A stretch of 49,612 bases of DNA from Planctomycetaceae bacterium (GCA_031268995.1 JAIRWK010000064.1:1-49612), one strand, 5' to 3'. Counted from the stretch's first letter, positions 2,960 to 49,332 are shown. Translations and numbers: made by a program. Notes: a model not told the origin generated them from the sequence alone.

Positions 2960-3062
2960 TATACTCAAGTTACTTTAAAATTCATGGAGCTGGACACGCA
3001 AGCATAACAACGTGAAGCGGTTGTTCAAGGGCGAAGCCTATCGCCCTACCGGCTACGGAATA
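2960..3062 (+). mobile_element. family-A ~104-bp MITE-like element, full copy ('+' means it reads TATACTGAAGC...TTTTAAAATTCCTGAAGCTG...CAACAACGTGAAGCGGTTGTTCAAGGGCGAAGCC...GGCTACGGTATA)
   Basis: Direct alignment to the other copies. Termini tatactcaag / ctacggaata. Confidence 0.85.
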
Positions 3063-3088
3063 ACAAACCATTATTAAATAATAAAAAA

Positions 3089-4279
3089 ATGAAAAAAATA
3101 AAATATGTAAACGTTGTGATGTTGTTTTTGATTTCAGTGTTTACTTTGAATTTAATTGAGTGTCTTGCTGAAGAAACGGTAAAGTTAAATACGGATCACA
3201 AGATAGTTATACCTGATGAACCAAAACATAAAAATATTGATGCTATTGTAAAACGTGTTAATTTTTGTGTTGATTATTTAGCCGCACAAGATATAAACGG
3301 ATTGAGATTTTATCCCCTTTTTGAAAAAGAGAATAAATCAAAACTAATTATTAGCGGAAACCTACAATATGCCAACAAAAAATTGGAAGCGATGTACGTG
3401 TTTATTTTGCCGGTTGACACAGAATCGGAAGATGTTGTGTGTAGTGGATTGGTTCACATCTTTTTGTCCGATGGTGTTGTTGGTTCGTACACCGAATTCG
3501 GTCCCAAAGATGATAGTCTTTTTGTGCATTCGGGAGTTGGCTTTTATGAAAATGGAAGATTTGCTGATATGTATTGTTCTGACGATGATTTTGAGAACAA
3601 TAAATACTTGCTCTGGGATGAAAAGGGAACACTAAAAAGTAAGGTGTCTGATGTGAAAATTGGCGCGACATTCTCAAATGAATCATTGGCAAGATTTGAT
3701 AAAAATAAAAAAACAAATTATTTACCCCAAATAAAGCTGCCAAGTAACATCGAGAAATATAAAGAGAAATATAAAGATGTTAAGGGAATACTACAAGGTA
3801 TAGACATTATATTGACGAAACAGCATGAGAATACATATAAATTTATCTACAATATTTGCTATCCAAATTTTTTCAAAAAAACCAAATCGGAATACGACAA
3901 AGTTAATTTCGAGATATTACTTGGTTTAGACGGCATTGAAGAATTTTTTGTTGAGCAGGATACTCATCATAAAGGTTTATACAATTCCTACCATATAAAA
4001 ATTTCAAAGAATCAGATATCACGTTTAATTGTAGGTAATATGAAAGGACCCAGTAATCCATTCAGTAAATTGACACCAGCGCGGATAGACGGTTCAGGAG
4101 TGGAGGTTATGTTTCATTCGACAGGTTATCCGGCAACCTATAAAACAATAGTCAAGAATCGTCTTTTTGGTCGTCAAATAGAGTGGAACGATAAAGGTGA
4201 AGTTGTGTCGGATATTGAACTAGATATTCCAAAAGAATGGAAAGACGCGCCGAAAAAAATTGAATCGGAATCAAAATAA
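3089..4279 (+). CDS. secreted MORN-variant (YwqK-like) repeat protein
   Basis: Signal peptide MKKIKYVNVVMLFLISVFTLNLIECLA. Repeated G-x-Y...NG...W-x-x-x-G motifs (e.g. GYPATYKTIVKNRLFGRQIEWNDKGEVV). C-terminal 'PKEWKDAPKKI' echoes 'PKDWKEAPKEI' at the start of ORF 1-1644. Confidence 0.6.
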   Translation: MKKIKYVNVVMLFLISVFTLNLIECLAEETVKLNTDHKIVIPDEPKHKNIDAIVKRVNFCVDYLAAQDINGLRFYPLFEKENKSKLIISGNLQYANKKLEAMYVFILPVDTESEDVVCSGLVHIFLSDGVVGSYTEFGPKDDSLFVHSGVGFYENGRFADMYCSDDDFENNKYLLWDEKGTLKSKVSDVKIGATFSNESLARFDKNKKTNYLPQIKLPSNIEKYKEKYKDVKGILQGIDIILTKQHENTYKFIYNICYPNFFKKTKSEYDKVNFEILLGLDGIEEFFVEQDTHHKGLYNSYHIKISKNQISRLIVGNMKGPSNPFSKLTPARIDGSGVEVMFHSTGYPATYKTIVKNRLFGRQIEWNDKGEVVSDIELDIPKEWKDAPKKIESESK

Positions 4280-4290
4280 GGAAATTTCTG

Positions 4291-4393
4291 TATGCCCAAG
4301 CTATTTTAAAATTCCCGAAGCTGTACACGCAAGCGTAGCATTGCGAAGCGATTGTTCAAGTGTGAAGCCTATCGTTCTATTGGCTACGGTATA
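4291..4393 (+). mobile_element. family-A element, full but diverged copy
   Basis: tatgcccaagctattttaaaattcccgaagctg...ggctacggtata. Confidence 0.8.
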
Positions 4394-4658
4394 AATCACT
4401 TTTGGTTGTGCCAGTTTCGGCATAGCAGGTGATATTTTTTCTTTAATAATTGCCAATAAACAAGATATATGTGAAAGGTTCCCGCGTTGAGGTATTTCAC
4501 GATCAAATCGATAAACTTTTGTTATTTTTCGTATTTTTTCTAATACAAATAATCGTTATAACCGATATACGTGTGCCGCATTCCGTTTTCAGGAATTTTG
4601 GCGGGTTGCGGTGTGTGTGTGTTTCCTAGCCGGTATAATTCAACAGTTAATTTTTATT

Positions 4659-5456
4659 ATGTCATACGGTTTATACATTTCGTCAGAGGGTGCGATGTCT
4701 CAAGATTACAGGCTTGCGACTATTTCGAATAATATTGCCAACATAGAGACACCCGGATTTAAGCGTGAACTTGCGATGCAGATGGCGCGTCATACGGAGT
4801 CGGTTGCTATTGGCGAAGTTGAATTTGGGACGGGGTTGATAACTGACATTGGCGGCGGTGTTCATACTATTGGCACACACACGGAATTTTCGCAAGGTAC
4901 AATCAAACCAACCGAAACCAAATCTGACCTCGCAATACAAGGCGAAGGTTGGTTTAGAGTGAGGGACATGTCCAACGACGAAATTTTCTTGACTCGCGCG
5001 GGTACATTTCAAGTTGATCGCAACGGGGCATTTGTTTCGGAGTGGGGGCGGAGCAGATTTCAATTGCTTGATGTTGACGGTGAACCTGTTGCCCTAGCTG
5101 ATCCGAACTCGAAAAATTGGACGATTACTGACGATAACGTATTGCAAGACGTGGGAGTAGGACGGTTACAGCAAATCTCAATGGTTAAACCGGCAGATTT
5201 GAAGCAATTGGTCAAAACTGGCGAAAATGTTTACCGAATTGACGCTCCCGAAGACCAGCAACTCTACGCCGAAATCGAACCAAACGAACGCCAAAGAATA
5301 AGAGAAGGTCATCTCGAAATGTCAAACACAAATCCCTCAACAGAAATGATCGAAATGATCGTCGCCTCGCGCGCCGTCGAAACAAACGTAAAAATGATCC
5401 AAGCACAAGACGAAGCAACCGGAAACCTAATTTCACGAGTACTACGAATCGCCTAA
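4659..5456 (+). CDS. flgF: flagellar basal-body rod protein FlgF
   Basis: N-terminus MSYGLYISSEGAMSQDYRLATISNNIANIETPGFKR and C-terminus GHLEMSNTNPSTEMIEMIVASRAVETNVKMIQ are the conserved rod-protein termini. ATG at 4659 is preferred over the GTG at 4611. Confidence 0.85.
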   Translation: MSYGLYISSEGAMSQDYRLATISNNIANIETPGFKRELAMQMARHTESVAIGEVEFGTGLITDIGGGVHTIGTHTEFSQGTIKPTETKSDLAIQGEGWFRVRDMSNDEIFLTRAGTFQVDRNGAFVSEWGRSRFQLLDVDGEPVALADPNSKNWTITDDNVLQDVGVGRLQQISMVKPADLKQLVKTGENVYRIDAPEDQQLYAEIEPNERQRIREGHLEMSNTNPSTEMIEMIVASRAVETNVKMIQAQDEATGNLISRVLRIA

Positions 5457-5468
5457 CCATACTAAAGC

Positions 5469-5520
5469 TATACCGGAGCCGGTATGGGCGAAGCCTATTA
5501 CTTATATTGGCTTCGGTATA
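5469..5520. mobile_element. family-A mini-copy (52 bp; both termini, interior deleted)
   Basis: tataccggagccggtatgggcgaagcc...ggcttcggtata, between flgF and flgG. Confidence 0.7.
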
Positions 5521-5547: not shown

Positions 5548-6354
5548 ATGCCATTTCAGACTATTTACTCATCTGGTACCGGAATGCTCGGTATGGAGAA
5601 GAAATTGAACACGATAGCTCATAATTTGTCGAATGTTGAGACGACGGCGTACAAGAAGCAACGTGTTAATTTTGAGGATTTGTATTATGACAATTTGCGT
5701 TATCCGGGTTCGCAAGATGTGAGTAGTGAGTTTGCGGCGACTGGTATTGCGATTGGTGTTGGTACACGTGTTACAAGTGTTCAGACAAATTTTTCTGAAG
5801 GTTCGCTTTCCGAGACTGGTCGTGATCTTGATATTGCAATTGCGGGCGAAGGATTTTTGCGGGTGAGAGACCCTTTGTCGGATGCAAATTTTTACACACG
5901 TGCGGGAAATTTAAGTGTCAATGCTAACGGGTTACTTGTTGTTGGCAGTGCGCACACGGGACGACCTCTTGATCCTGAAATTGCGATTCCGGCGGGTGTA
6001 CAGAAAGTGCAAATTTCCGATGACGGTGCCGTTTACGTCGTGCAAGACGGCAACGTAAACGCATTGCAATTGTTAGACAGAGTGCAACTTGCAACTTTCA
6101 TTAATCCTGAAGGTTTATTGCGTGTCGGGGAAAATATGTATCGAGAAACCGAATCTTCCGGTGTTGCGGTGTTGGGTGATCCGGGGATAAATGGAATCGG
6201 CACTTTCAAAGCTGGTTATCTTGAAATGTCAAATGTTGCGCCGGTTATTGAGTTGATTGACATGATTACCTCGCAACGCGCTTACGAACTAAACAGCAAA
6301 TCAACGCAAACAGGCGACCAAATGTTGCAAACCGTCATAAGTATTAAACGGTAA
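5548..6354 (+). CDS. flgG: flagellar basal-body rod protein FlgG
   Basis: LNTIAHNLSNVETTAYKKQRVNFEDL at the N-terminus. GYLEMSNVAPVIELIDMITSQRAYELNSK at the C-terminus. 268 aa, typical FlgG size. Confidence 0.9.
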   Translation: MPFQTIYSSGTGMLGMEKKLNTIAHNLSNVETTAYKKQRVNFEDLYYDNLRYPGSQDVSSEFAATGIAIGVGTRVTSVQTNFSEGSLSETGRDLDIAIAGEGFLRVRDPLSDANFYTRAGNLSVNANGLLVVGSAHTGRPLDPEIAIPAGVQKVQISDDGAVYVVQDGNVNALQLLDRVQLATFINPEGLLRVGENMYRETESSGVAVLGDPGINGIGTFKAGYLEMSNVAPVIELIDMITSQRAYELNSKSTQTGDQMLQTVISIKR

Positions 6355-6375
6355 TTTCAAAACAGCTTGAGTATA
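6354..6375 (-). mobile_element. family-A terminal fragment (22 bp)
   Basis: atttcaaaacagcttgagtata fills the flgG-flgA spacer and abuts the flgA ATG (gagTATAATG). Confidence 0.6.
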
Positions 6376-7636: not shown

Positions 7637-7740
7637 TATACCGAAGCCGGTATGGGCGGTAGGCTTCGCCCTCGAACAACCGCTTCACATTGTTGCGCTT
7701 GCGTGTTCAGCTTCAGGAATTTTAAAACAGCTCGAGTATA
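7637..7740 (-). mobile_element. family-A element, full copy
   Basis: tataccgaagccggtatgggcggtaggcttcgccctcgaacaaccgcttcacattgttgcgcttgcgtgttcagcttcaggaattttaaaacagctcgagtata. Confidence 0.9.
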
Positions 7741-7796
7741 TTCAATAACCAATCCTATCACCTGTACCGACTGCGGTATAACTTTTTTATTAGAAA

Positions 7797-8494: not shown

Positions 8495-8552
8495 AAAAAC
8501 ACCTCCCCCCTTCCCTTGTCCCTTTCGTCCTTTTTGTCCTTTTTGTCCCTAA
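8495..8552. repeat. phased GTCC(C)-T-tract block (family F, GTCC subtype)
   Basis: ccttgtccctttcgtcctttttgtcctttttgtccct: GTCC words at ~9-10-nt spacing. Similar blocks at 13355-13440, 23945-24005, 27356-27400 and 31320-31345. Confidence 0.7.
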
Positions 8553-8554
8553 AC

Positions 8555-8657
8555 TATGCTGAAGCTACTTTAAAATTCCTGAAGCTGAACACGCAAGCGC
8601 AACAACGTGAAGCGGTTGTTCAAGGGCGAAGCCTATCGCCCTACCAGCTTCGGTATG
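8555..8657 (+). mobile_element. family-A element, full copy
   Basis: tatgctgaagctactttaaaattcctgaagctgaacacgcaagcgcaacaacgtgaagcgg...cagcttcggtat. Confidence 0.9.
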
Positions 8658-8682: not shown

Positions 8683-10380
<1,698 letters not shown>

Positions 10381-10544: not shown

Positions 10545-10649
10545 TATACCGAAGCCGGTATGGGCGGTAGGCTTCGCCCTTGAACAACCGCTTCACGTTG
10601 TTGCGCTTCCGTAATCAGCTTTACTGAATTTTAAAATAGCTTGGGCATA
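10545..10649 (-). mobile_element. family-A element, full copy
   Basis: tataccgaagccggtatgggcggtaggcttcgcccttgaacaaccgcttcacgttgttgcgcttccgtaatcagc...gcttgggcata. Confidence 0.9.
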
Positions 10650-13242: not shown

Positions 13243-13345
13243 TATACTGAAGCTGTTTTAAAATTCCTGAAGCTGGACACGCAAGCGTAACAACGTGAAG
13301 CGGTTGTTCAAGGGCGAAGCCTATCGCCTTACCGGCTACGGTATA
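13243..13345 (+). mobile_element. family-A element, full copy
   Basis: tatactgaagctgttttaaaattcctgaagctggacacgcaagcgtaacaacgtgaagcgg...ccggctacggtata. Confidence 0.9.
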
Positions 13346-13440
13346 AATATCAGAGACACTAGGGACACAAGAGACGCAAAGGACATTGAGGACAAAATAA
13401 ATTGGGGCTGTGTTTTGTCCTTTTTGTCCTTTTTGTCCCT

Positions 13441-13754
13441 CATATCTCTGCTGTTCTTCTGTGTGTTTTTTGTTTTTCTTTTATATTTTTTTTGACGCTT
13501 TTTTTAGGCAGGTTTGGCAATCTTGGAATTCTTTGGACTTTACGATGGCGGCTCCTGATTTTAAGCGGTTTACTACATCATGCCAAAATTCACTTAAAAA
13601 TGTTGCGTGGAATTTTTTTGATCTGGCTGAAATAAATTCGTCTTGAATGTGTTTGAATAATTTTGCCAAACTTAATTTTATCGCCTCCGATACCGAATAC
13701 ACAACCGCCTCGCCACAAATAACCAATACACCCACCCCTAACACAACACCAAAC
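13441..13754 (-). repeat. direct repeat DR-b: displaced copy of the GTPase gene 3' end plus ~35 nt downstream
   Basis: Aligns base for base with 14421-14729 (offset ~975-980, a few substitutions, one small indel). Confidence 0.9.
13481..13744 (-). pseudogene. orphan 3' fragment of the GTPase gene (duplicate of its last ~83 codons)
   Basis: 87-aa ORF ...GVLVICGEAVVYSVSEAIKLSLAKLFKHIQDEFISARSKKFHATFLSEFWHDVVNRLKSGAAIVKSKEFQDCQTCLKKASKKI differs at 3 positions from the C-terminus of ORF 14456-16414. Confidence 0.8.
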
Positions 13755-14423: not shown

Positions 14424-14729
14424 ATCAGTATATTTTTGTGTTTTTTGTTTTTCTCTTATATTTTTTTTGACGCTTTTTTTAGGCAGGTTTGGCAATCTTG
14501 GAATTCTTTGGACTTTGCGATGGCGGATCCTGATTTTAAGCGGTTTACTACATCGTGCCAAAATTCACTTAAAAATGTTGCGTGAAATTTTTTTGATCTG
14601 GCTGAAATAAAATCGTCTTGAATGTGTTTGAATAATTTTGCCAAACTTAATTTTATCGCCTCCGATACCGAATACACAACCGCCTCGCCACAAATAACCA
14701 ATACACCCGCCGCCAACACGACACCAAAC
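14421..14729 (-). repeat. direct repeat DR-a (functional 3' end of the GTPase gene plus spacer)
   Basis: Partner of 13441-13754. Confidence 0.9.
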
Positions 14730-17383: not shown

Positions 17384-17431
17384 TTTTTTAATTTTTAGGT
17401 TAAGGGGTTAAATTTTATACTGGTTTCGGTA

Positions 17432-19317: not shown

Positions 19318-19421
19318 TATACCGAAGCCGGTATGGGCGGTAGGCTTCGCCCATGAACAACCGCTTCACGTTGTTGCGTTTGCTTGTTCAGCCTCAGGAA
19401 TTTCAAAACAGCCTGAGCGTA
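19318..19421 (-). mobile_element. family-A element, full copy
   Basis: tataccgaagccggtatgggcggtaggcttcgcccatgaacaaccgcttcacg...gcctgagcgta. Confidence 0.9.
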
Positions 19422-19424: not shown

Positions 19425-19760
19425 GACAAAAGGGGATTTTTAACACGAAAGGTACAAAACAAAAGCGGGAATGGGACTTCCGTTCCTGAGAACGGAGCTT
19501 TCATTCCCGAAAATGGAGCTTTCATTCCTGAGAATGGAGCTTTCATTCCCGAGAACGGAGCTTTCATTCCCGAAAATGGAGCTTTCATTCCCGATGATTT
19601 TTCCTCCAGACTCTAAAATTTTCTCCACGCACCAAAAATTCCCCTTTTCGTATTTTTAGTCCTTTTTGTGCCTTTGGTGTTCAAAATCCCTCTTTTCGTA
19701 TCTTTCGTCTTTTTCGTACCTTTAGTGTAAAAAATTTCCCCCTTCGTGATTAAACGAAAT
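19425..19760 (+). repeat. family-H dispersed repeat (carries the expanded 21-bp array and T-tract blocks)
   Basis: Reverse-complement relationship to 47395-47617 (shared cgaaaggtacaaaacaaaagc, ggagctttcattccc, cagactctaaa). Confidence 0.65.
19473..19598. repeat. 21-bp tandem repeat, 6 units (GGAGCTTTCATTCCCGAAAAT)
   Basis: Units start at 19473 (degenerate), 19494, 19515, 19536, 19557 and 19578. Open in several frames on both strands, which indicates a non-coding repeat. Confidence 0.9.
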
Positions 19761-20026: not shown

Positions 20027-20129
20027 TATGCTCGAGTTGTTTTGAAATTCCTGAAGCTGAACACGCAAGCGTAAAATCGCGAGGCTGTTGTTTGAGGGTA
20101 AAGCCTACTGCCTGTATTGGCTTCGTTAT
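20027..20129 (+). mobile_element. family-A element, diverged full copy
   Basis: tatgctcgagttgttttgaaattcctgaagctgaacacgcaagcgtaaaatcgcgaggctgttgtttgaggg... Confidence 0.8.
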
Positions 20130-20168: not shown

Positions 20169-20274
20169 TATAACAAAGCTACATTAAAATTCCTGAAGCT
20201 GAACACGTGAAACGCAACATCGCGAAGCGTTTGTTCAAGAGGCGAGGCTTAATGCCCAAACCGGCTTCGGTATA
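20169..20274 (+). mobile_element. family-A element, diverged full copy
   Basis: tataacaaagctacattaaaattcctgaagctgaacacgtgaaacgcaacatcgcgaagcgtttgttcaag...ccggcttcggtata. Confidence 0.8.
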
Positions 20275-30388: not shown

Positions 30389-30389
30389 T

Positions 30390-32324: not shown

Positions 32325-32680
32325 AACCACAGAGGACACAGAGATCACAGAGGGGGATTTAAAAGAGAGGAAGGATTTTTAAATGATGGGTGATATCTTG
32401 TAACCGTTCACAGAACAGATTTTTAAACGCGAAACACACGAAAGATCACGAAAGTTTGCGAAAAATAGTTTCGTGTTCTTTCGCGGAAATTTCGTGTATT
32501 TCGCGTTAAAAAACAATTTCTATACCGTAGCCGGTATAAATCTAATTCACACCGCCATAATTTCTCAACTCTCTACAAAAAAATTCTCTCTGTGTCCTCT
32601 GTGGTTTTAAAAAATTCCCCCTTTCGCGTAACATTCGCGTCTTTCGCGTTAAAAATCTCCCCCTGCGTTCTCTGTGGTTA
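32325..32680. repeat. family-G/F composite repeat block
   Basis: aaccacagaggacacagagatcacagag at the left. ctctgtgtcctctgtggtt and ctgcgttctctgtggtta at the right. An internal palindrome of cgcgaaa/cacgaaa words is centred near 32465. An embedded family-A terminus tataccgtagccggtata lies at 32521-32538. Confidence 0.65.
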
Positions 32681-36100: not shown

Positions 36101-39100
36101 AATGTCAACGGAGGAACTTTCGAATTTAATAACAACGGAGTTAAAGCTAACCCCGCAACTTCTGCTAAAGTTAAAAGTATCGTTGTTGATGGAGAAAATA
36201 CTGTTCTTGATCTTAAAGCATACTCTTATGTTACAGTTTATGAAACCAGTGAAGCCGCTTTGACAATTAAAAATAATGGTACGGCAAAAGTCGATGTTTT
36301 ATCAAGACTTGTTAATAGCACGTGGGATACCACAGCAAGTCCCGTATTTAATGTTGCAATTAACGGTGGAACTCTTGAAGTTTACAACGGAGAATCTTCG
36401 GATGATACCAATATATTGAACCCGCATTTAGCTGGTGTTACAACAACCGTAACAGATACGGCAACAATCAATGTCGGTGAAGGTATTACTTTCGATCCAG
36501 GTGTTGTGAAAACCGAAGCAAACAACAGTACAGCCAGTATAACAAAAATCGGAGAAGGAACACTTCGTATTCAATACGGTTTTGATCTTGGCGGCGGCAA
36601 TATTGATGTTAAGAATGGAACATTGGCAATCAATCCCGATACAAAAGATCATCCTCTGACAGTTAATGCCAATGTTAAACTGAACGCTAACAATTTAATT
36701 ATCGGCGAAGCCGACGACAATAAGGCGCAATCAATTACCATCGGAAGTATCTGCGGAAGTTCCGAAAGTACAACAATTATTAACGCTGGTGATTCATTGA
36801 TCATCACAAAAGGCAGTACTTACGGCGGAAAAATAACCGGCGGCGGTAATTTAACCGTAGCCAGCGAAACATTGACGTTAAGCAATAAAGATAACAATTA
36901 TTCCGGCACAACAACACTCAACGAAAACGTTAATTTGATAATTTCAAACGGCGGTACTTACAGCGGAAAAATAACCGGTGCCGGTGATTTAACCGTAACC
37001 AGCGGAACATTGACGTTAAGCAGTACAACTAACGATTACTCCGGTACAACAACACTCGGCGGCGAGTTGTCCGTAACCATAGACAGTGCCTTGAGCGCGA
37101 ATAGTAATTACGTTGTCGGAAATAATGGTAAATTGTCAATCAATGATTCCGCACAAACAATCAAGACTCTTAACGGCACAGACGGCGAAGTTAATCTGGG
37201 AACAACCGGTAATTTGACAATTTCAAACGGCGGAAAATTCGACGGAGAATTAACCGGTGGCGGCACTTTAACCATATCAGGCGAAGAATTGACCTTGACC
37301 GGAAGTTATTCCAAAACAGCTAAATTCGCCGTCAATACCGGAACTCTTTTACTTGATCATTCAACATCTGAAGAATCTAAAAATATTACGTTTAGTAATT
37401 CATTGACCGGAAGCGGAACACTTGCAGTTAAGTTGAATGCTTTAACCGATACGTTTACTTTAGGAACAGATACCATAGATACCGGTTTTAGCGGAACCAT
37501 TGAAATGAAAAATGGAATTTTTGCAACAAGCAATTTCACACAATTGACAAACGTAGGACTCAAATTAAACAGCGATTCAAGCACTACAATTGACGAGAAT
37601 CTATCCATTTCAAAATTAACCCTCAACGGCGGACAAATCAATTTTGTCGCGGCTCCCGTAACTCCAACCGCGAAATTAACCGTTACCGATCTTGTGATTG
37701 GTAACGACGGCGGAATTATAGGTGTTGATCAAACATTAGACATTGTTACGACGAATACACCACCGTCAACACAAAATATTTTCGATTATTGGAATGATGA
37801 CGCTAATTACCAACAACAACTTATTGCTGTTGAAGGTACCATCACCAGAGACGGAATCATCACACCTGATTCGGTCGCCAGCATCGAACAATCACGAAAT
37901 CTTGTCAACGGCGGTGTCGCAAAATTTAATTACAATGTCAGTGTCGATAGCGATAGCTCTTCCGCCCAAAAAGGAATCTATCTCGGTTACGGTTTGGTTG
38001 AAATAGAGAGTCCAGCGGATAAGACCGTTACACTAGATACGACAAACGCAACCAATCCGAAATTGACCGCGAAATTAACCGGAAACGGCGGTTTCAAATT
38101 CATCGGAACCGGCAGCACGTCGCAAGTTGAAATCGGTAACAGTGACAGCAATTATTCCGGTAACACTGAAATTGATAATCTGAAAATAAAAATGCTTGAC
38201 GATAAAGCATTCGGAACAGTCGCCAATTTATCACTCACAAATAACGCCGAACTTGATATGAATTCCAAGACCGCAAGCGTTGCACAACTTAACGGAGATA
38301 ATGATACAAAAATTAATGTCGGTGATTTAACCGTTACAAACGGCGGCAATTTTGCCGGACAATTAACCGGCATCGACAGTAATTTAACCATAACTGGCGG
38401 AACATTGGCATTAAGCAATAATGCTAACGATTATTCCGGTACAACAACACTCAACGGCGGTAATTTGTCCGCAACCGTAACCAATGCCTTGAGCGCGAAT
38501 AGTGATTACGTTGTCAATGGTGGTAAATTGTCAATCAATAATTTCGCACAAACAATCAAGACTCTTAACGGCACAGGCGGCGAAGTTAATCTTGGAACTG
38601 GTAGTTTGACAATTTCAAACGGCGGAGCCTTCAGCGGAAAATTTGCCGGTAGCGGTAATTTAACCGTAGATGCCGGAACATTGAACTTGACCCAAAACTA
38701 TTTCGCAACCGGCGGCGTTACCATAAACTCCAATGGAACACTTTTGCTCAATCCATCAACCGGAAATGGTACGTTTAATAATTTATTGACCGGAAGCGGA
38801 AAACTTGCGGTTGGTTTGAGTGATACCGACAAGACATTCACTTTAGGAGCAGGTGCCGGAACTGGTTTTACCGGAACTCTTGAGATGAACAAAGGAATTT
38901 TTGCAACAAGCGGTTTCTCACAATTGATAAACGTAACCCTCAAATTAAATGATAATTCACGAATCAAAATCGACAGCAATCTGTCCGTTGCAAATTTAAC
39001 CCTCAACGGCGGACAAATCGAATTTGCCGCCAATCCATTAACTCCAACCACAAAATTAACGGTTGCGAATTTGAATATTGCAAACGGCGGAAAAATAAAG

Positions 39101-41338
39101 ATTGATAATACCGCCAATAATATAAATACGTCATTATCATCGACTCAGAATATTTTTGATTATCACAGTGATCCAGTTAATTATCAGCAACAACTCGTCG
39201 CAGTTACAAACCAAATCACCGGAAGCGGAACCATCACACTCGATCCGTCCGCCAACACCGGACAAGAACGAAATCTTGTCGGCGGCGGTGTCGCAAAATT
39301 TAATTACAATGTCAATGTCGATAGCTCTTCCGCCAACAAAGGAATCTATCTCGGTTACGGTTTGGTTGAAATAGATAATCAAGGAAATACCGTTACATTA
39401 AATACAGCAGGCGCAACCAATCCGAAATTGACCGCGAAATTAACCGGAAACGGCGGTTTCAAATTCATCGGAACCGGCATCACGTCGCTGGTTGAAATCG
39501 GTAACAGTACCAGCAATTATTCCGGCAACACTGAAATTGATAACATGAAAATAAAATTGACAGACAATAACGCCTTCGGACAAACATCAAATTTATTGCT
39601 CACAAATAACGCCAAACTCGATATGGATTCTCACGCCGTAACCGTGAAACAACTTGACGGAAGTAATACTACAACAATTACTAACGCTAACTTAACAATC
39701 ACAAACGGCGGTAACTTCGGCGGACAATTAACCGGTAACAATAATTTAACCTTGACCGGCGGCGAATTAACCTTGACCGGAAATAACTCAACCGCAACCG
39801 GAACATTTAACCAAACCGGCGGTATCATGAATTTACAAAATACTTGGGGCGGAAATTATGCTCTCGGAAATAGCGCAACATTAAATTTGTCCAACTCCTC
39901 ACAAATCGGCGGTAACATAAATCTCGCCGGTATAGTTGATATAACAAATGGAAAATTAAATGTTGTCGGAGACCTTAATATTGCTGGTGGTTCGGTTGTG
40001 AAAATGACTATCGATGAAAATAAAATTACCGCGAATAAAATAACTATAGATGATAACGCCCAAATAATATTGACCGCAATTCCTAACGGTACAATAAATA
40101 ACGTTATCGTTTCAACTACACCATTCACAGAAGAACAAATCACAAAACTTAACTCCAAATTCACATTGACCGACAAATTACTTGTGTCATTGAAACCGGT
40201 CTATAGTGCCGACTACAAAAAAATGGGCTTCGAAAGCAGCTCACAATCCACCATCGCTTACACCGCCAATAGTAACTTCAGCGGTAACCAAACCCAAATC
40301 GCCGGCTTGCTCGACGATTGCCCAGACGTACAAACGATATTGCAATCGCTCGATACTCGCGAACAGCTCGAAGGTTTGGTCAAAAGTATGCTTGCGCCGG
40401 AGCTTGCGGCAGACGCTCGCGATTTAGCTTTGAATAGCCCATACGTCCACGTCTCCAATCACCTCAATAATTTGTCCGCCACTCCCGCCAATAATACTCC
40501 CAACACACTATTTCGCGGACAATCCCCACACAACAACATCGCCACACAAAGTAACCACGAATTTTGGTTTGAAGGCTACTATCAAAGCGGCAAAACAAAC
40601 GGCGACTCAAACGCACTAGGCTACAAAACATCACGCGGCGGAATGATGGTCGGTGTTGATAAATATTTCGGCGATGGGTTGTTGACGGGGTTGGTTTTCG
40701 GTTACGGCAATCCGCGAACTTATAACTCAACTGGTAAAATTGAAGCCGACGACTACACGTTCGGCGTTTACGCAAAACTAAAAATATTCGGCATCTACGC
40801 CAACACTTTCTTGGGATACGGAAGCCAAAATTACCAGTTGCGCCAAAACCAAATTAACCCAACTCAACACACCAAATTTAACGGTGACTCAACATTCGCA
40901 AGTTTAGAATTGTTCAAACCGATCTATTTGCGCAACGATATGTTGGTTGCGCCGCTAGTTGCAATTGACTTTCAAAAATCATGGTCAGACGGTTTCAATA
41001 CAAACAATATTGTCCCGCTCACCGTCAAAAAAGGTGAAATGGATCAAACGGTCTTGCGACTCGGTGTCAACTCAAATTACAGAAATTGGCGAACACGTTT
41101 ACAATACGGCTACCAAGTTGCGGGCGATTTGTACAGCACCTCCAGAACCTCACTCACCGGCGGCGGTAATAACAGAGTCTTGTCAGGTGTAAATCTCGGT
41201 CGCCATACCTTCAACGCCGGATTCGGCGGCGATTTCCAAATCGGCAATCGCACAAAACTATTCGCCGACTACGACCTCGATCTAGGTGAACGCACCACAA
41301 ATCACACTGGACAGTTCGGGGTTGTCTGCAACTTTTAA
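33194..41338 (+). CDS. giant autotransporter (PATR-repeat passenger plus C-terminal beta-barrel); the frame is open from 33080 through the poly-G
   Basis: Many 'G-x-G-x-LT(V/I)-x-x-G-x-LTL-x-x-x-N-(D/N)YSGTTTL' autotransporter-associated beta-strand repeats. C-terminal ~275 aa (from ~40510) has the autotransporter beta-domain pattern, ending ...GQFGVVCNF. No signal peptide in the tracked ORF. Confidence 0.85.
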   Translation: MGVFIDSNNTKYYLSGDTYGDDSGTDYASSNIGLSSGGITLTSAEKAQLGAIFSNDKSLNFDFGTSSISVINSSETGALTAGFGYVNTDAFGGTLNATGASGEETPEYSVTASGGSAFGFVFAKGTSVLSSGVANLSNATIDLVGSGATITVSNSGDDSNSFGFVAGDLKKSTIKLGEITSQITGTGGDETSLIHGFIAGDVSKNSKIALLDVTAKTTCQATSGNVLAVELKEIRGCVETGNIVAIANSGDATGFSALAILGKVKLGDINVTTTTSGSAQGVVIGRHAEFDVPESPSANSAKISGHINVGDIVINSVGNGTGFFIRHDITNASQWKNNLPLPIVLSGKVELGKINIKSQNHAIGFLISNGNYASSINAPEITGTGTATANVTFGDDIAVVSTGTGTGVAIGISLGDFTGDPKADLASARSGSIVLKGDITATSANDYALGIHAGQLESLEVNTNISAETSKNNVNYYAYGIYTRGYTEGASNSDVTKDKNSVISITGGSIFATATSAATAASIIMDSTCDDVVNIDAGTTSTAWTNNDGTNDRAFTLIGVETLNVKRDTQLVAGSKRGTATVADKVATTNVDEDKTLSVYDTFFNGGSQKKIGKGTISIIRDDSSTGTGTLSKLEIAGGIFELIGSTKNAKTTLLFAEDSSNAQDIIKIGGGATLKISGENVALINVAQVAAYLDFTNEQAIYETNPHLNMTVDGGTVEVIGAESLYAAGLNVFIGNSGAIISVTNKEEESSRVVVSDIAATTSATTPNLTKTGNGKLEILYGFDLEKGTINVNGGTFEFNNSSVNTTPFTTSAKVKSIVVDGEDAVLDLKAYSYVTVHETNEAALTIKDGGTAKVDVLSRLVNSTWDTTASPVFNVAINGGTLEVYDGSKLASETNFTEDQVATLLNPHLAGVTTTVTNTATINVGEGITFDPGVVKTKTNDSTASITKIGDGTLRILYDFDFADGTINVNGGTFEFNNNGVKANPATSAKVKSIVVDGENTVLDLKAYSYVTVYETSEAALTIKNNGTAKVDVLSRLVNSTWDTTASPVFNVAINGGTLEVYNGESSDDTNILNPHLAGVTTTVTDTATINVGEGITFDPGVVKTEANNSTASITKIGEGTLRIQYGFDLGGGNIDVKNGTLAINPDTKDHPLTVNANVKLNANNLIIGEADDNKAQSITIGSICGSSESTTIINAGDSLIITKGSTYGGKITGGGNLTVASETLTLSNKDNNYSGTTTLNENVNLIISNGGTYSGKITGAGDLTVTSGTLTLSSTTNDYSGTTTLGGELSVTIDSALSANSNYVVGNNGKLSINDSAQTIKTLNGTDGEVNLGTTGNLTISNGGKFDGELTGGGTLTISGEELTLTGSYSKTAKFAVNTGTLLLDHSTSEESKNITFSNSLTGSGTLAVKLNALTDTFTLGTDTIDTGFSGTIEMKNGIFATSNFTQLTNVGLKLNSDSSTTIDENLSISKLTLNGGQINFVAAPVTPTAKLTVTDLVIGNDGGIIGVDQTLDIVTTNTPPSTQNIFDYWNDDANYQQQLIAVEGTITRDGIITPDSVASIEQSRNLVNGGVAKFNYNVSVDSDSSSAQKGIYLGYGLVEIESPADKTVTLDTTNATNPKLTAKLTGNGGFKFIGTGSTSQVEIGNSDSNYSGNTEIDNLKIKMLDDKAFGTVANLSLTNNAELDMNSKTASVAQLNGDNDTKINVGDLTVTNGGNFAGQLTGIDSNLTITGGTLALSNNANDYSGTTTLNGGNLSATVTNALSANSDYVVNGGKLSINNFAQTIKTLNGTGGEVNLGTGSLTISNGGAFSGKFAGSGNLTVDAGTLNLTQNYFATGGVTINSNGTLLLNPSTGNGTFNNLLTGSGKLAVGLSDTDKTFTLGAGAGTGFTGTLEMNKGIFATSGFSQLINVTLKLNDNSRIKIDSNLSVANLTLNGGQIEFAANPLTPTTKLTVANLNIANGGKIKIDNTANNINTSLSSTQNIFDYHSDPVNYQQQLVAVTNQITGSGTITLDPSANTGQERNLVGGGVAKFNYNVNVDSSSANKGIYLGYGLVEIDNQGNTVTLNTAGATNPKLTAKLTGNGGFKFIGTGITSLVEIGNSTSNYSGNTEIDNMKIKLTDNNAFGQTSNLLLTNNAKLDMDSHAVTVKQLDGSNTTTITNANLTITNGGNFGGQLTGNNNLTLTGGELTLTGNNSTATGTFNQTGGIMNLQNTWGGNYALGNSATLNLSNSSQIGGNINLAGIVDITNGKLNVVGDLNIAGGSVVKMTIDENKITANKITIDDNAQIILTAIPNGTINNVIVSTTPFTEEQITKLNSKFTLTDKLLVSLKPVYSADYKKMGFESSSQSTIAYTANSNFSGNQTQIAGLLDDCPDVQTILQSLDTREQLEGLVKSMLAPELAADARDLALNSPYVHVSNHLNNLSATPANNTPNTLFRGQSPHNNIATQSNHEFWFEGYYQSGKTNGDSNALGYKTSRGGMMVGVDKYFGDGLLTGLVFGYGNPRTYNSTGKIEADDYTFGVYAKLKIFGIYANTFLGYGSQNYQLRQNQINPTQHTKFNGDSTFASLELFKPIYLRNDMLVAPLVAIDFQKSWSDGFNTNNIVPLTVKKGEMDQTVLRLGVNSNYRNWRTRLQYGYQVAGDLYSTSRTSLTGGGNNRVLSGVNLGRHTFNAGFGGDFQIGNRTKLFADYDLDLGERTTNHTGQFGVVCNF
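35500..36600 (+). repeat. intragenic tandem duplication, period ~505-540 nt, ~2 copies plus a partial third
   Basis: LTKTGNGKLEILYGFDLEKGTINVNGGTFEFNN...NVAINGGTLEVYDG repeats as ITKIGDGTLRILYDFDFADGTINVNGGTFEFNN...NVAINGGTLEVYNG. The DNA is near-identical over long stretches. Confidence 0.85.
37030..39600 (+). repeat. intragenic duplication of a ~1.2-kb module (period ~1.37-1.39 kb)
   Basis: 37031 aacgattactccggtacaacaacactc... parallels 38417 aacgattattccggtacaacaacactc.... 38090-38190 parallels 39455-39560 (GGFKFIGTG...EIGNS.SNYSGNTEIDN.KIK). Confidence 0.85.
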
Positions 41339-41473: not shown

Positions 41474-42925
41474 TTATTGTAACGAAAAATATTGATTGAA
41501 TTCTGTGTTTGAGGTATCGACGCATTTTATTCTTTGGATGGCGGTACGGAAACGAGCGTCGTTTCTGATGGCGTTAAATCTCTGCGAATTGATGAGGTTT
41601 ATTGGTTTGGGCGAAATTAGAATTATGTCGGCACCGGGATCAATTTGCAGTAACGCTTCTAAAATTGCTCTTGGTAAATTGTCTTTGATTTCATGCCTCG
41701 CCGTCGCAAGCCGCCGCAAAACACTCTCAACAAGCGGTAAACAAATCGGTCCCGATAAACTCTCCTCGTCCGGTTTGCTTGTTGCGAAAAATAAATTGCA
41801 ACCGCCGCGCCGTGTCATGTCACAAACTAACGTTGCAGCAAAACTTAACGCAAGCTCAAAATTGCCGGACTCCACTTGATTTGACTCCAACTGCTCATCA
41901 TAAAGATCAAGCAAAACCGCACAATCATAATTTTGTTTTATCTCAAATTGACGGACGAACGGTTGCCCGTGTCTTGCGGACGCTCGCCAATGAATCCATT
42001 TTATCGTGTCGCCAGGTAACCATTGCCTTACACCTAAAAATTCGCCGGTGCCTCTGCTTGGTCTGAATCTGTATCGTTGCCGGTTTATTGCCGCTTCGGT
42101 TCGGCGTGTTTGCCACCTCGACGATAAATGACCAACCTTCGGAAACACATAAAACTCATCACCATTCAACCCATCAGATAAACACATCGAATGCCGAAAA
42201 AAACCAAACGGAAATCGCGTCGAAATTGTCATAGGACCGAATTTATATTTACCACGTTGCGGCAACTTGCCCGCATAACTTTTTTGAATTACACTGTGTT
42301 GCCCAATATACTCAAAATAAACCGCCGGTTCATATACCATTTCCGATACAGATGATAGGTTTTGTCCTTGAACAACCGATTCAAGTTGTTGCGATTCCGC
42401 GTTCAACTTCAAATCAGCTTTATTATAAAATACCATTTCAGACGGATTCTCTCCCTCAACAGATTCGTCGTGTATTGATTGGATTCTATCGCTAACAACA
42501 ACACCCCAACTTCCGGCATTTCTTCGTTTCCGCTGTTTTGTTTTTTTTGCGTTGTTGGGCAAATTTATTCCACCGCCGTTTGGCGTATTTTTGGAATTCA
42601 ATTGCCCTGATTGTCCAGACTCGGAAACGGATTCAAGATTGACATCAGATTTATTGTAACAATTATTATCACAATACTTGCTCAACCCAATATGCACGAT
42701 AAAAGGATCGCCCGCAAAAACACGTTCGGGTAATTTGCGCCTTACACTAACACCACGCAACGAATAACGCCCAACCCAACCAGACGTTGGTAATATAGCA
42801 AACAAAGCCGCCGCTAAAAGCAACATCGGATTAACTTCCCGCACAATTGAACCTATCATAAAAACAATTGTAACAAAAAGAAAAATCACTCCCTCACGGC
42901 TGAATGTCGTTTTGATCTTCATCAT
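41474..42925 (-). CDS. DUF58 (vWA-like) family protein with a long low-complexity/repeat-derived insert
   Basis: Two N-terminal TM helices. GTGEFLGVRQWLPGDTIKWIHWRASARHGQPFVRQFE is the DUF58 signature. ~130-aa insert upstream of it (see 42333-42427). Confidence 0.75.
   Translation of the reverse strand: MMKIKTTFSREGVIFLFVTIVFMIGSIVREVNPMLLLAAALFAILPTSGWVGRYSLRGVSVRRKLPERVFAGDPFIVHIGLSKYCDNNCYNKSDVNLESVSESGQSGQLNSKNTPNGGGINLPNNAKKTKQRKRRNAGSWGVVVSDRIQSIHDESVEGENPSEMVFYNKADLKLNAESQQLESVVQGQNLSSVSEMVYEPAVYFEYIGQHSVIQKSYAGKLPQRGKYKFGPMTISTRFPFGFFRHSMCLSDGLNGDEFYVFPKVGHLSSRWQTRRTEAAINRQRYRFRPSRGTGEFLGVRQWLPGDTIKWIHWRASARHGQPFVRQFEIKQNYDCAVLLDLYDEQLESNQVESGNFELALSFAATLVCDMTRRGGCNLFFATSKPDEESLSGPICLPLVESVLRRLATARHEIKDNLPRAILEALLQIDPGADIILISPKPINLINSQRFNAIRNDARFRTAIQRIKCVDTSNTEFNQYFSLQ
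42333..42427 (-). mobile_element. family-A element embedded in frame in the DUF58 CDS
   Basis: tataccatttccgatacagatgataggttttgtccttgaacaaccgattcaagttgttgcgattccgcgttcaacttcaaatcagctttattata is colinear with the consensus (3 mismatches in the 31-nt core). Translated as LKLNAESQQLESVVQGQNLSS. Bracketed by ataccatttc at 42334-42343 and 42430-42439 (96-nt period). Confidence 0.8.
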
Positions 42926-42987
42926 AAGAAATTTCCAAAAACAATAAACTATTTTTTATACCGAAGCCGGTATGAAATTCGTCTTTT

Positions 42988-43090
42988 TATACCGAAGCTA
43001 CTTTAAAATTTCTGAAGCTGAACACGCAAGCGTAACAACGTGAAGCGGTTGTTCAAGGGCGAAGCCTGTCGCCTTACCGGCTACGGTATA
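42988..43090 (+). mobile_element. family-A element, full copy (preceded by a solo terminus at 42957-42975)
   Basis: tataccgaagctactttaaaatttctgaagctgaacacgcaagcgtaacaacgtgaagcgg...ccggctacggtata. Confidence 0.9.
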
Positions 43091-43328: not shown

Positions 43329-43348
43329 TCTAAAAACTCATTTTAGTC

Positions 43349-43403
43349 CTGTAACGGCAACGTCCCCGCTACCGAAATCGGAAGCGGGACGCTTCCGTTA
43401 CAG
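43349..43403 (+). repeat. family-E GC-rich long hairpin; overlaps the prmC stop codon
   Basis: ctgtaacggcaacgtccccgctaccgaaatcggaagcgggacgcttccgttacag. The arms are complementary. The TAA of prmC (43398-43400, minus strand) lies in the right arm. Confidence 0.8.
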
Positions 43404-44436: not shown

Positions 44437-44537
44437 CTGTAGCGGAAGCGTCCCGCTTCCGATTGCGGCAACGGGACACTTCCGATTGCGGCAACGGGAC
44501 GCTTCCGATTGCGGTAGCGGGGACGCTACCGTTACAG
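44437..44537. repeat. family-E hairpin, expanded version (internal ~22-nt units repeated)
   Basis: ctgtagcggaagcgtcccgcttccgattgcggcaacgggacacttccgattgcggcaacgggacgcttccgattgcggtagcggggacgctaccgttacag. Confidence 0.8.
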
Positions 44538-44540: not shown

Positions 44541-44633
44541 TATACTCAGCTGTTTTAAAGCTGGACACGGAAGCGCAACAACGTGAAGCGGTTGTTCAAG
44601 GGCGAAGCCTATCACCTTACCGGCTACGGTATA
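44541..44633 (+). mobile_element. family-A element, copy with a ~11-nt internal deletion
   Basis: tatactcagctgttttaaagctggacacggaagcgcaacaacgtgaagcgg...ccggctacggtata. Confidence 0.9.
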
Positions 44634-46828: not shown

Positions 46829-46931
46829 TATACCGTAGCCGGTAGGGCGATAGGCTTCGCCCTTGAACAACCGCTTCACGTTGTTGCGCTTGCGTGTTCA
46901 GCTTCAGGAATTTTAAAGTAGCTTCAGTATA
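46829..46931 (-). mobile_element. family-A element, full copy
   Basis: tataccgtagccggtagggcgataggcttcgcccttgaacaaccgcttcacg...gtagcttcagtata. Confidence 0.9.
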
Positions 46932-47224: not shown

Positions 47225-47328
47225 TATACCGAAGCCGGTATGGGCGATAGGCTTCGCCCCTGAACAACCGCTTCACGTTGTTGCGCTTCCGTGTTCAGCT
47301 TCAGGAATTTCAAAGTGGCTTTGGTATA
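47225..47328 (-). mobile_element. family-A element, full copy
   Basis: tataccgaagccggtatgggcgataggcttcgcccctgaacaaccgcttcacg...gtggctttggtata. Confidence 0.9.
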
Positions 47329-47619: not shown

Positions 47620-47674
47620 CTGTAACGGAAGCGTCCCGCTTCCGATTGCGACAGCGGAGACGTTGCCGTTACGG
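47620..47674 (-). repeat. family-E hairpin (reverse complement of 43349-43403)
   Basis: ctgtaacggaagcgtcccgcttccgattgcgacagcggagacgttgccgttacgg. Confidence 0.8.
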
Positions 47675-47958: not shown

Positions 47959-48068
47959 AGTAAATTTATTCAACATGAAGGGTGATTTTTTTGAAACGCG
48001 AATACGCCTACGTAGTGAAAGGTCGTGAAAAATTTAATTTTTATTTTTGTTGAACGAAGAGGTATTGT

Positions 48069-48908
48069 ATGTTTAAAATATTGAGTAACAAGGAGCTTGT
48101 TCCTAATATATACGAGATGACGGTTGTGCATCCGCGACTGGCGAAGAAGGCACAACCCGGACATTTTGTGATAGTTATGCCCGACGAATGCGGCGAGCGG
48201 ATTCCGCTGACAATCGCTGATTTTGACCGGCAAGCGGGTACTGTAACGCTTGTGATTATGGCGGTTGGCACATCGACGATGAAGTTGGTGTCATTGAAAT
48301 CGGGTTCTGAGTTGTATGCGATTATTGGTCCTCTTGGGACGGTGAGTGAGATTGAGGATTATGGTACGGTGATAATGGTTGCGGGCGGAGTTGGCACTGC
48401 GCCGGTATTTCCAATTGCGCGGAGCTTCTACACAAACAACACAAAAGTCATCTCAATCCAAGGCGTAAGAACTAAAGAACTCTTGTTCTGGACAGATAAA
48501 TTAGCCGAAGTAAGCGATATTCACATAATAACAACAGATGACGGAAGCGCGGGACGAAAAGGTCTTGTTACAGAGCCGTTGCGTGAAATTCTGGAGAGTG
48601 AGGGCGAGAATATAGGTTGCGTGTACATGATAGGACCCGCAGTGATGATGAAATTTTGCTCGCAAGTGGTAACAAATTTCGGCGTGAAATCGATTGCAAG
48701 TCTGAATAGTATAATGATTGACGGAACGGGAATGTGCGGTGGATGTCGGGTAAAAATTGGAGATGAGACAAAATTCACGTGTGTTGACGGTCCCGAATTT
48801 GATGCCTCGCAAATTGACTGGGATATTTTGTTGTCAAGACAAAAAATGTATTGCGACGAAGAAAAATGCTCATTGAATAAATACAAAAATACACTCGGAA
48901 TATCATAA
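48069..48908 (+). CDS. FAD/NAD(P)-binding, [2Fe-2S] oxidoreductase small subunit (NfnA/SudB/PyrK-like)
   Basis: MFKILSNKELVPNIYEMTV...GHFVIVM...ERIPLTIADFD (FAD barrel), GGVGTAP (NAD), C-terminal DGTGMCGGCRV...FTCVDGPEF cluster motif. Confidence 0.8.
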   Translation: MFKILSNKELVPNIYEMTVVHPRLAKKAQPGHFVIVMPDECGERIPLTIADFDRQAGTVTLVIMAVGTSTMKLVSLKSGSELYAIIGPLGTVSEIEDYGTVIMVAGGVGTAPVFPIARSFYTNNTKVISIQGVRTKELLFWTDKLAEVSDIHIITTDDGSAGRKGLVTEPLREILESEGENIGCVYMIGPAVMMKFCSQVVTNFGVKSIASLNSIMIDGTGMCGGCRVKIGDETKFTCVDGPEFDASQIDWDILLSRQKMYCDEEKCSLNKYKNTLGIS

Positions 48909-48985
48909 AGGGAATTTTTGAAAAATACTATTTATCAAAAAATTGCCAAAAAAAAATTATTTCAAATTCAGTCGATTTTGATCGA

Positions 48986-49088
48986 TACGCTCAAGCTGTT
49001 TTAAAATTCCTGAATCTGGACACGCAAGCGCAACAACGTGAAGCGGTTGTTCAGGGGCAAAGCCTATCGCCTTATCGGCTACGGTATA
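48986..49088 (+). mobile_element. family-A element, full copy
   Basis: tacgctcaagctgttttaaaattcctgaatctggacacgcaagcgcaacaacgtgaagcgg...tcggctacggtata. Confidence 0.85.
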
Positions 49089-49155
49089 TGCTCAAGCTGT
49101 TTTGAATTCCTGAAGCTGTGGTAAACCTACAACGCAGTGCGTTAGGCAAGCGTAT
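49085..49155 (+). mobile_element. family-A left half fused to unrelated sequence, overlapping the previous copy's terminus
   Basis: tatatgctcaagctgttttgaattcctgaagctg, then tggtaaacctacaacgcagtgcg... Confidence 0.6.
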
Positions 49156-49275
49156 ACTGTAGCTGCTATGAAATTCATTTTTTTTAAGACAGGATAACAG
49201 GATTACAGGATCGTCAGGATATAATAAAATCCTGTCAAAAAAATAAAAACTGAATTTCATAGTGCGATGAGTATA
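49153..49275 (-). mobile_element. family-C element, full copy (inverted relative to 31350-31463)
   Basis: tatactgtagctgctatgaaattcattttttttaagacaggataacagg...aaaaactgaatttcatagtgcgatgagtata. Confidence 0.75.
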
Positions 49276-49332
49276 GCATCGTGAAGTGGTTGCTCAGGGG
49301 CGAAGCCTACCGCCAATACTGGCTTCGGTATA
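49272..49332 (+). mobile_element. family-A right half
   Basis: tatagcatcgtgaagtggttgctcaggggcgaagcctaccgccaatactggcttcggtata. Confidence 0.7.

Follow-up and report, generated by a model that had tools for sequence, protein, structure and literature searches.

The stretch of DNA analysed here, called the window below, is a whole planctomycete contig of 49.6 kb (49,612 nucleotides, GCA_031268995.1 JAIRWK010000064.1:1-49612), whose nearest database proteins are annotated "MAG: Planctomycetaceae bacterium" (MAG, metagenome-assembled genome). It encodes BBP7, DUF1559 and DUF58 proteins, flgF-flgG-flgA-flgH, MCP, Obg, PrmC and a 2714-residue autotransporter. Most of its larger intergenic spacers hold a short repeat, termed family A, and two of its segments belong to a second repeat, family C. 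Family A is in all likelihood a non-autonomous DNA transposon of the TA-targeting type, i.e. a miniature inverted-repeat transposable element (MITE). This is what a first, sequence-only reading had proposed, and the proposal agrees well with a small, non-coding unit with terminal inverted repeats and TATA ends, which is dispersed in both orientations and has left deletion derivatives that keep their ends. It also fits the TA duplication, the insertions within genes that are missing from homologs and the patchy presence among related genomes, as detailed below.

Searches by BLAST with the consensus and with an nhmmer profile built from 15 copies gave 20 full-length family A copies of 92–105 nt, 11 on the plus and nine on the minus strand, together with seven more significant fragments. 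The initial estimate of about 20 full-length copies in both orientations was accurate, and the consensus drawn then is 97% identical to the copy at 7637–7740; two diverged copies in coding regions (42334–42422 and 15517–15587), detected with nhmmer, had been omitted from that tally. The first 23 nt of the consensus are matched eight times in the window with at most three mismatches, compared with no match in 100 shuffles. Family A-derived DNA amounts to 2425 nt, or 4.9% of the window and 23% of the DNA between its genes, with one full copy per 2.5 kb. The statement that nearly every intergenic spacer is occupied was too strong, since, among the 24 spacers that are 90 nt or longer, 16 hold a near-full copy, a figure rising to about 20 of 24 when any element-derived piece, including mini-copies and solo hairpins, is counted. 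The mean pairwise identity of the window copies is 85% (range 64–98%), and two length subtypes can be distinguished, one of 104 nt starting with TATACCGAAGCCGGTATGGGCGG and one of 103 nt starting with TATACCGTAGCCGGTA-RGGCGA. Their only open frames are 34 codons long. This size and this coding content place family A among MITEs, which are small (below about 300 bp) and devoid of transposase coding capacity. The copies, their derivatives and the two genes that contain copies are the following.

2960–3062, minus strand: full-length family A copy (nhmmer positions 1–103, E = 5e-33)
4291–4393, minus strand: full-length family A copy, diverged (CGCAATGCTA subfamily), taken as an 'empty site' for comparison with the family C insertion
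5469–5520: rearranged mini-copy, a left end (positions 1–22) plus an inverted left end (positions 1–36)
6349–6375, plus strand: right-end fragment AATTTCAAAACAGCTTGAGTATA, which covers both the stop of flgG and the start of flgA
7637–7740, plus strand: full-length family A copy of the 104-nt subtype, between flgA and flgH
7739–7780, minus strand: inverted partial left end (positions 1–41), abutting the copy at 7637–7740
8555–8656, minus strand: full-length family A copy (nhmmer)
10545–10649, plus strand: full-length family A copy (nhmmer)
13243–13345, minus strand: full-length family A copy (nhmmer)
14456–16414, minus strand: GTPase-like gene, holding the copy at 15517–15587
15517–15587, plus strand: diverged copy within the GTPase-like gene (nhmmer)
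17416–17432: solo terminal hairpin TATACTGGTTTCGGTAT
19318–19421, plus strand: full-length family A copy (nhmmer)
20027–20129, minus strand: full-length, diverged family A copy (nhmmer)
20171–20274, minus strand: full-length, diverged family A copy (nhmmer)
21917–22018, plus strand: full-length family A copy (nhmmer)
22106–22123: solo hairpin TATACCGAAGCTGG(TATA), split at its own TA by the copy at 22120–22222
22120–22222, plus strand: full-length family A copy, inside the solo hairpin 22106–22123
23861–23884, plus strand: 24-nt mini-copy with both termini kept (TATACCGAAGC..GAGTATA)
25346–25440, minus strand: family A copy with a 9-nt internal deletion
27084–27103: hairpin-like mini-unit abutting the copy at 27100–27203, with TATA in common
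27100–27203, plus strand: full-length family A copy (GATGC-TA-CGCTTGCG subfamily), taken as an 'empty site' for comparison with the family C insertion
27315–27355, plus strand: 41-nt internally deleted mini-copy, TATTACCGTAGC joined to TTCAGG..CAGTATA, both termini kept
30286–30388, plus strand: full-length family A copy, directly followed by a family C-related fragment (30389–30443)
31350–31463, plus strand: family C, 114 nt, with terminal inverted repeats of about 25 nt
31488–31590, plus strand: full-length family A copy (nhmmer)
32521–32538: solo hairpin TATACCGTAGCCGGTATA
41474–42925, minus strand: DUF58 gene, holding the copy at 42334–42422
42334–42422, plus strand: diverged full-length copy with a 9-nt deletion, within the DUF58 gene (nhmmer)
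42957–42974: solo hairpin TATACCGAAGCCGGTATG
42988–43090, minus strand: full-length family A copy with near-complementary ends TATACCGTAGC... / ...GCTTCGGTATA
44542–44633, minus strand: family A copy, internally deleted close to the right end
46829–46931, plus strand: full-length family A copy (nhmmer)
47225–47328, plus strand: full-length family A copy (nhmmer)
48986–49088, minus strand: full-length family A copy, with one TA in common with the adjoining interrupted copy
49087–49152, minus strand: right part of a family C-interrupted A copy, plus an extra insert of about 27 nt
49153–49275, minus strand: family C, 123 nt, at the single TA of an A copy, with TA on either side
49271–49332, minus strand: left part (positions 1–58) of the family C-interrupted A copy

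The derivatives named by the sequence-only reading were all recovered, namely the mini-copies at 27315–27355 and 5469–5520, the doubled termini at 22106 and 27084 and the abutting copies at 49087. Another mini-copy with both termini lies at 23861–23884, and the left-end hairpin of family A occurs alone about ten times. The retention of both termini in 27315–27355 and 23861–23884 fits a transposase that recognises the ends. These ends, TATACCGWAGC and GCTTSRGTATA, are indeed the 11-nt imperfect inverted repeats described at first: 74% of cells pair, positions 6–8 being usually mismatched, and the terminal TA, or a close variant of it, is kept in all 20 copies.

Several nested arrangements reveal how the elements were inserted. 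The minus strand from 49332 to 49087 is a single A copy interrupted by family C, which reads ...CACGATGC TA [TACTCATCGC...GCTACAGTA] TA CGCTTGCC..., or in short ...GATGC TA [TACTC...CAGTA] TA CGCTTGC.... The intact A copies of the same subfamily (27100–27203 and 4291–4393) read ...GATGC TA CGCTTGCG..., beginning CGCTTGC. A TA target duplication follows from the single TA of these intact copies versus the TA on each side of the inserted family C. The copy at 22120–22222 lies within a solo hairpin, as GCG TATACCGAAGCTGG TA [TACCG...GAGTA] TA TATTTTT, and the perfect palindrome TATACCGAAGCTGGTATA is regained when its core and one TA are taken away. Exactly one TA is in common at the junction of the two A copies at 49087. 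The insertion in the DUF58 gene resolves to GTA TTT TA|T GAA, which gives back ...SEMVFYEPAV... at the length found in every homolog. As far as can be read from sequence, these nested and paralogous comparisons, which are distinct from orthologous empty sites, demonstrate that family A and family C insertions both duplicate their TA target.

Family C itself, as first described, is real, with one copy on each strand (31350–31463 and 49153–49275) and terminal inverted repeats of about 25 nt. Direct reading of the sequences by eye shows that its left end and the right end of family A have in common TATACTCA and AAATTC at positions 19–24. The suggestion that one enzyme moves both families gains from these partly similar ends and from the TA duplicated by family C as well; it stands as probable, and not as proven. 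The A copy interrupted by family C also carries at 49100–49135 an extra segment of about 27 nt, CTAACGCACTGCGTTGTAGGTTTACCA, which contains the palindrome AACGCA-C-TGCGTT and replaces the consensus GTGTC. This segment may be a further tiny insertion.

Two copies are found inside genes, both of which are long open reading frames (ORFs) on the minus strand, and the two copies are translated in one and the same frame of the element, namely reverse-complement frame 1 of the consensus, YTQAVLKFLKLNTQAQQREAVVQGRSLPPIPASV. They align with the element consensus nearly end to end. In the DUF58 gene, the copy adds 31 codons in frame, in a segment containing ...NKADLKLNAESQQLESVVQGQNLSS..., which none of the 15 aligned homologs has, not even the orthologs in two MAGs that bear the element (P0004 from LBH59 and P0009 from LBL39). 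In the GTPase-like gene, the copy is read in frame as INDTKSTLNLNKQSQQHETFVQEQLPQSVLAM, about 31 residues, a segment absent from the ten best homologs out of ten in an exhaustive search. The frame YTQAVLKFLKLNTQAQQREAVVQGRSLPPIPASV stays open in about half of the intergenic copies. Since 102 added nucleotides correspond to 34 codons, a full copy of the 104-nt type keeps the reading frame.

The partner transposase was searched for with Pfam among the 29 ORFs of the window and the ORFs of three fetched loci (L001, L004 and L008). No transposase domain was found in the 29 window ORFs, in line with the initial statement that the window holds no transposase. The family A consensus has no match in plasmids, phages or viral contigs. 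Two matches were set aside. The partial YhgA/Rpn-like Transposase_31 at the end of L008 (6984–7430) is not regarded as a mobiliser candidate. The Rpn-like genes at 8799–9929 of L004 (HTH_Rpn_C in precomputed Pfam), which lie between flgG and flgA in a locus without the element, are an unlikely mobiliser.

Several observations weigh against the MITE interpretation. The window and the fetched loci L001–L008 yielded neither a cognate transposase nor a full-length insertion sequence (IS) whose ends match. Base-resolution orthologous empty sites are likewise lacking, the intergenic DNA of the L004 and L005 flagellar spacers being unalignable. The junctions at 27084/27100 and at 1613–1616 of L007 do not show the extra TA expected by the simple model, and a 10-nt direct repeat, GAAATGGTAT, stands on either side of the DUF58 copy. 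This repeat (region 42300–42450, minus strand) appears in the peptide as SEMV...SEMV and exceeds the length of a TA duplication; it could be due to chance, to later conversion or to a preference for targets resembling the element's own end. Lastly, with its short, imperfect terminal inverted repeat and a left-end hairpin that also stands alone, family A is reminiscent of REP-type elements.

An alternative scheme is one in which the element would be REP/REPIN-like or derived from IS200/IS605, an HUH (Y1) enzyme of the RAYT/TnpA kind recognising the hairpin TATACCG-NNNN-CGGTATA and inserting 3' of TATA or TA without true duplication. The left end does form a perfect 7-bp hairpin (TATACCG-NNNN-CGGTAT), the very structure found solo, several abutting units have a whole TATA in common, and a TA-ended element placed after a TA is formally indistinguishable from a TA duplication. 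However, the two ends are inverted repeats of one another, with a single central mismatch in the copy at 42988–43090, and the right end lacks a subterminal hairpin of this kind. The head of the hairpin is TATACCG, without GTAG or CGTC, and the copies are 104-nt units instead of REP doublets, present in both orientations without strand bias. REP and REPIN families are defined by a 20–40-nt palindrome headed by GTAG/CGTC, by doublets and by a RAYT gene, a combination which family A does not show. Family C, with the same TA flanks, has long terminal inverted repeats typical of DDE enzymes, and no Y1 transposase is encoded in the window. A hairpin-recognising HUH enzyme is thus unlikely, and a TA-targeting MITE remains the preferred interpretation.

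The element is widely distributed. A profile of its two open frames matches 487 database proteins, nearly all of them 40–120-residue "hypothetical proteins", which are ORFs called across copies and often across two or three adjoining copies. One MAG (LBJ00_00205 to LBJ00_18845) contributes such proteins from dozens of its contigs, and the others belong to four further Planctomycetaceae MAGs (LBK06, LBL62, LBH59 and LBL39) and to JGI contigs. The DNA scan of genome contigs gave at least one carrier locus, and copies were located at the DNA level in the following loci.

L001 (Gsp477_bin66, JAIRYX01): two copies
L007 (LBH59): four copies in 6.6 kb
L008 (LBL39): two copies in 7.4 kb

Many contigs, from at least five other Planctomycetaceae MAGs, carry family A, so that its copies are far from confined to this region, the finding which would have spoken for a local artefact. 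An assembly or segmental-duplication artefact limited to one contig could be envisaged because the window is a single metagenomic contig. It is refuted by the unique flanks of the copies and the substitutions proper to each of them, as well as by the dozens of other contigs and the other MAGs, and its probability is close to nil. Integron attC arrays and CRISPR were also ruled out, given the two orientations, the housekeeping genes between copies and the irregular spacing.

No family A copy was found in 55 kb from relatives (L002–L005) with FlgG 88–90% identical, L002 and L004 being both from GCA_031269195.1. L004 and L005 carry a syntenic flgF-flgG-flgA-flgH, where the spacers of the window hold copies, and no copy is present in their spacers orthologous to the flgA-flgH spacer that holds 7637–7740. 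Metagenome contigs gave no hit in a first scan, and a second one returned only an unrelated REP-like hairpin repeat matching 27 nt. This repeat, CACATTTGCTGACGGGCTTCGCCCGTGAA, occurs in JGI metagenome contigs (L009 at 500–560 and 1615–1650; L010 at 520–555, 3250–3300 and 4430–4465) and has only a GGCTTCGCCC-TGAACAA core in common with family A; the resemblance is probably due to chance or to hairpin convergence. Among the MAGs that bear the element, at least one is from a lower-termite gut, Gsp477_bin66 having the sample prefix of a metagenome of the lower termite Glyptotermes (PMC11707648).

Comparison between genomes gives some indication of age. The copies of other genomes are 82–89% identical on average to the window copies, and up to 95%, compared with the mean of 85% within the window. 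The fourfold-degenerate sites of host genes are 32–54% identical between genomes (49–54% for DUF58 between the window and LBH59 or LBL39). As the copies are as similar across genomes as within the window while host silent sites are near saturation, they are not ancient orthologous relics. This points to an amplification of family A after its hosts had diverged, from a conserved or horizontally transferred source. A bolder extension would see families A and C as marks of an active TA-targeting transposase moving horizontally among co-resident Planctomycetaceae of the termite gut, the element being routinely exapted as 34-codon in-frame peptide cassettes and possibly as RNA-level punctuation between genes. 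If true, this would account for the identity of about 85–95% over the whole sequence across genomes saturated at silent sites, although such a scenario looks rather unlikely as a whole.

The same similarity between diverged genomes, equal to that within one genome, can be read in terms of function. Family A could be a host-selected intergenic module (a structured RNA, a terminator, a stabiliser or processing site, or a protein-binding site) under purifying selection, mobility being only its means of dispersal. It fills most spacers, its conservation is even over the full length without being concentrated at the termini, and the Correia and ERIC elements are known to affect transcripts (PMC10969869). 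The three internal stems recognised by the sequence-only reading do exist in the sequence, with 90% of cells paired. The compensatory substitutions that were looked for in these stems are nearly lacking: double changes are limited to three of 389 cells, the covariation test of stems and terminal inverted repeat met with little variation and gave unconvincing shuffle and slide controls, and stem 3 is broken without compensation in one subfamily (CGCGATGCT). Folding is not clearly better than that of shuffled sequence (z-scores of -1.1 and -2.3 for the two strands), no Rfam 15 match reaches the gathering score on either strand of the whole window, and a scan for promoter or terminator consensus found nothing consistent within copies, with counts near those of shuffles. 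Because of these four results, a structured-RNA or regulatory-site role for family A is unsupported. Moreover, copies lie in both orientations relative to transcription (eight against three, not significant), close relatives with the same operons have none, and many copies are truncated or nested. A host-selected module is thus a very unlikely explanation.

Under the preferred MITE interpretation, family A would consist of a core of about 100 nt, TACCGWAGCC...GCTTSRGTA, with imperfect terminal inverted repeats of 11–12 nt, which would integrate at a TA and duplicate it, so that copies read TA-TAC...GTA-TA. As it encodes nothing, its transposase would have to act in trans, from a gene at another place in the genome. 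The TA duplication, combined with short terminal inverted repeats in a unit about 100 nt long, as in RUP, Correia and ERIC, suggests a TA-specific DDE enzyme, presumably of the IS630/Tc1-mariner type; its identity and its current activity are suppositions at this stage. A recent amplification in one uncultured Planctomycetaceae lineage may have filled most intergenic spacers, the element inserting also into its own copies and hairpin remnants, and decay by internal deletion would have left mini-copies and solo hairpins. With a 100-nt core and a 2-nt duplication, i.e. 102 nt, coding insertions in the right phase could be tolerated, and two of them would have become fixed, each lengthening its protein by about 31 residues. 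Mobile elements generally proliferate in host-restricted bacteria, and the high density of family A might likewise be caused by relaxed selection in a host-restricted symbiont.

The window contains other repeats and features. A 9-nt periodic pyrimidine motif, TTGTCCTTT / TGTCCCTTN, forms arrays of three to four units in many spacers, often adjoining A copies. It is present upstream of flgH in the element-free locus L005 too, and is thus independent of the MITE. The arrays are located as follows.

8507–8559, 13406–13458, 19634–19747, 23955–23998, 27357–27400 and 31322–31356 in the window: 9-nt motif arrays
about 8800–8880 in L005: 9-nt motif array

A 21-nt unit, GAATGGAGCTTTCATTCCCGA, is repeated six times in tandem at 19469–19594, each unit being an imperfect hairpin, in a 1-kb spacer, together with three A copies. 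A 23-nt GC-rich hairpin unit, CGGAAGCGTCCCGCTTCCGATTG, forms a three-unit tandem array and occurs in two other spacers (44456–44521, 47626–47672 and 43340–43400); it represents a further small repeat family, with no relation to A or C. A comparison of its arrays at 44.5 kb and 47.6 kb gave no readable empty site. The segments 13462–13754 and 14437–14729 are a 293-nt direct duplication, 97% identical, which links the short ORF 13481–13744 with the overlap between a PIN-domain ORF and the 3' end of the GTPase-like gene, and which looks like a recent segmental duplication. The ORF at 31591–32289, whose ATG directly follows the A copy at 31488–31590, encodes only the C-terminal domain of a helicase (Helicase_C_2, DinG/Rad3-type), with no N-terminal helicase part upstream; the gene may have been truncated in this spacer, which holds one C and one A copy. 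Within the glycosyltransferase ORF 8683–10380, a perfect (AG)34 at 9444–9511 encodes an Arg/Glu-rich stretch and is a candidate slipped-strand, phase-variable switch of a surface-sugar gene. The autotransporter (33194–41338, 2714 residues) has extensive internal repeats of 138–300 nt that are 63–94% identical.

The practical consequences of family A concern assembly, since contigs can break at its copies, and annotation, where hundreds of spurious 40–120-residue NCBI/JGI "hypothetical proteins" (P0121–P0240) are the translated element, a systematic artefact. Gene models are also concerned, two proteins carrying element-derived segments. The family offers a natural case for studying MITE bursts in host-associated bacteria, an example of protein segment gain by in-frame MITE insertion outside Rickettsia, and a possible marker of horizontal exchange between gut symbionts. 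What deserves attention is its density, its two clean in-frame protein insertions and its cross-genome similarity; the understanding of how MITEs work is unchanged by it. The element sequence was not found in the literature searched, and Planctomycetes are unmentioned in a 2024 review of prokaryotic MITEs (PMC10969869).

Among known systems, the RUP element of S. pneumoniae is 107 bp long, targets TA and has 9-bp terminal inverted repeats with IS630-Spn1-like ends (PMC2229807). Family A resembles it in size (104 bp), in its terminal inverted repeats (about 11 bp), in its 5'-TA-3' termini and insertion at TA, in a high sequence conservation read as recent spread, and in insertion into other mobile elements, A and C being here inserted into A copies. 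In contrast, RUP has a candidate partner with matching ends, IS630-Spn1, whereas none was found for family A. It has stops in all six frames and is not reported in genes (PMC2229807), whereas family A has open frames and two copies that lie in frame within genes. The two are dissimilar in sequence, and the host phylum is different. RUP counts 108 copies in the S. pneumoniae genome (PMC2229807), compared with one per 2.5 kb in the window. The initial claim of a density far beyond that of typical families holds in that it exceeds the reviewed RUP, Correia and ERIC figures, the difference being of degree and not of kind.

The Correia/NEMIS elements of Neisseria have TATA-type termini, a TA duplication and size classes of about 107 and 155 bp; they are mostly intergenic and sometimes intragenic, in more than 100 copies, and no transposase has been identified for them by sequence (PMC2229807, PMC10969869). 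Their terminal inverted repeats are however longer (about 24–26 bp versus 11 nt), and they carry an IHF site, documented promoters and RNase III processing, whereas no promoter or terminator consensus was detected in family A, the sequence of which is unrelated. The ERIC/IRU elements of enterobacteria are imperfect palindromes of about 127 bp with TA termini and open frames, mostly intergenic and occasionally in genes, and their copy number varies strongly by lineage, up to 711 in Photorhabdus (PMC10969869). They fold as one full-length hairpin, whereas pairing in family A is confined to the 11-nt ends and to short local stems.

The RPEs of Rickettsia, of about 100–150 bp with terminal inverted repeats of about 12 bp, also have an open frame and are inserted in frame in genes of unrelated proteins, to which they add a peptide segment (PMC2229807, PMC10969869), and in both cases the bearer is host-associated. 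RPEs are mostly intragenic, whereas 20 of 22 full-length family A copies are intergenic, and their target duplication is uncertain, whereas that of family A is evident. With an unrelated sequence and another phylum, family A is RPE-like in behaviour and not in membership. It is thus closest to RUP by its size, TA target and short repeats, to Correia by its TATA ends and the lack of a known partner, and to RPE by its in-frame copies, and it is a previously undescribed family of ordinary bacterial MITE type, which is unusually dense.

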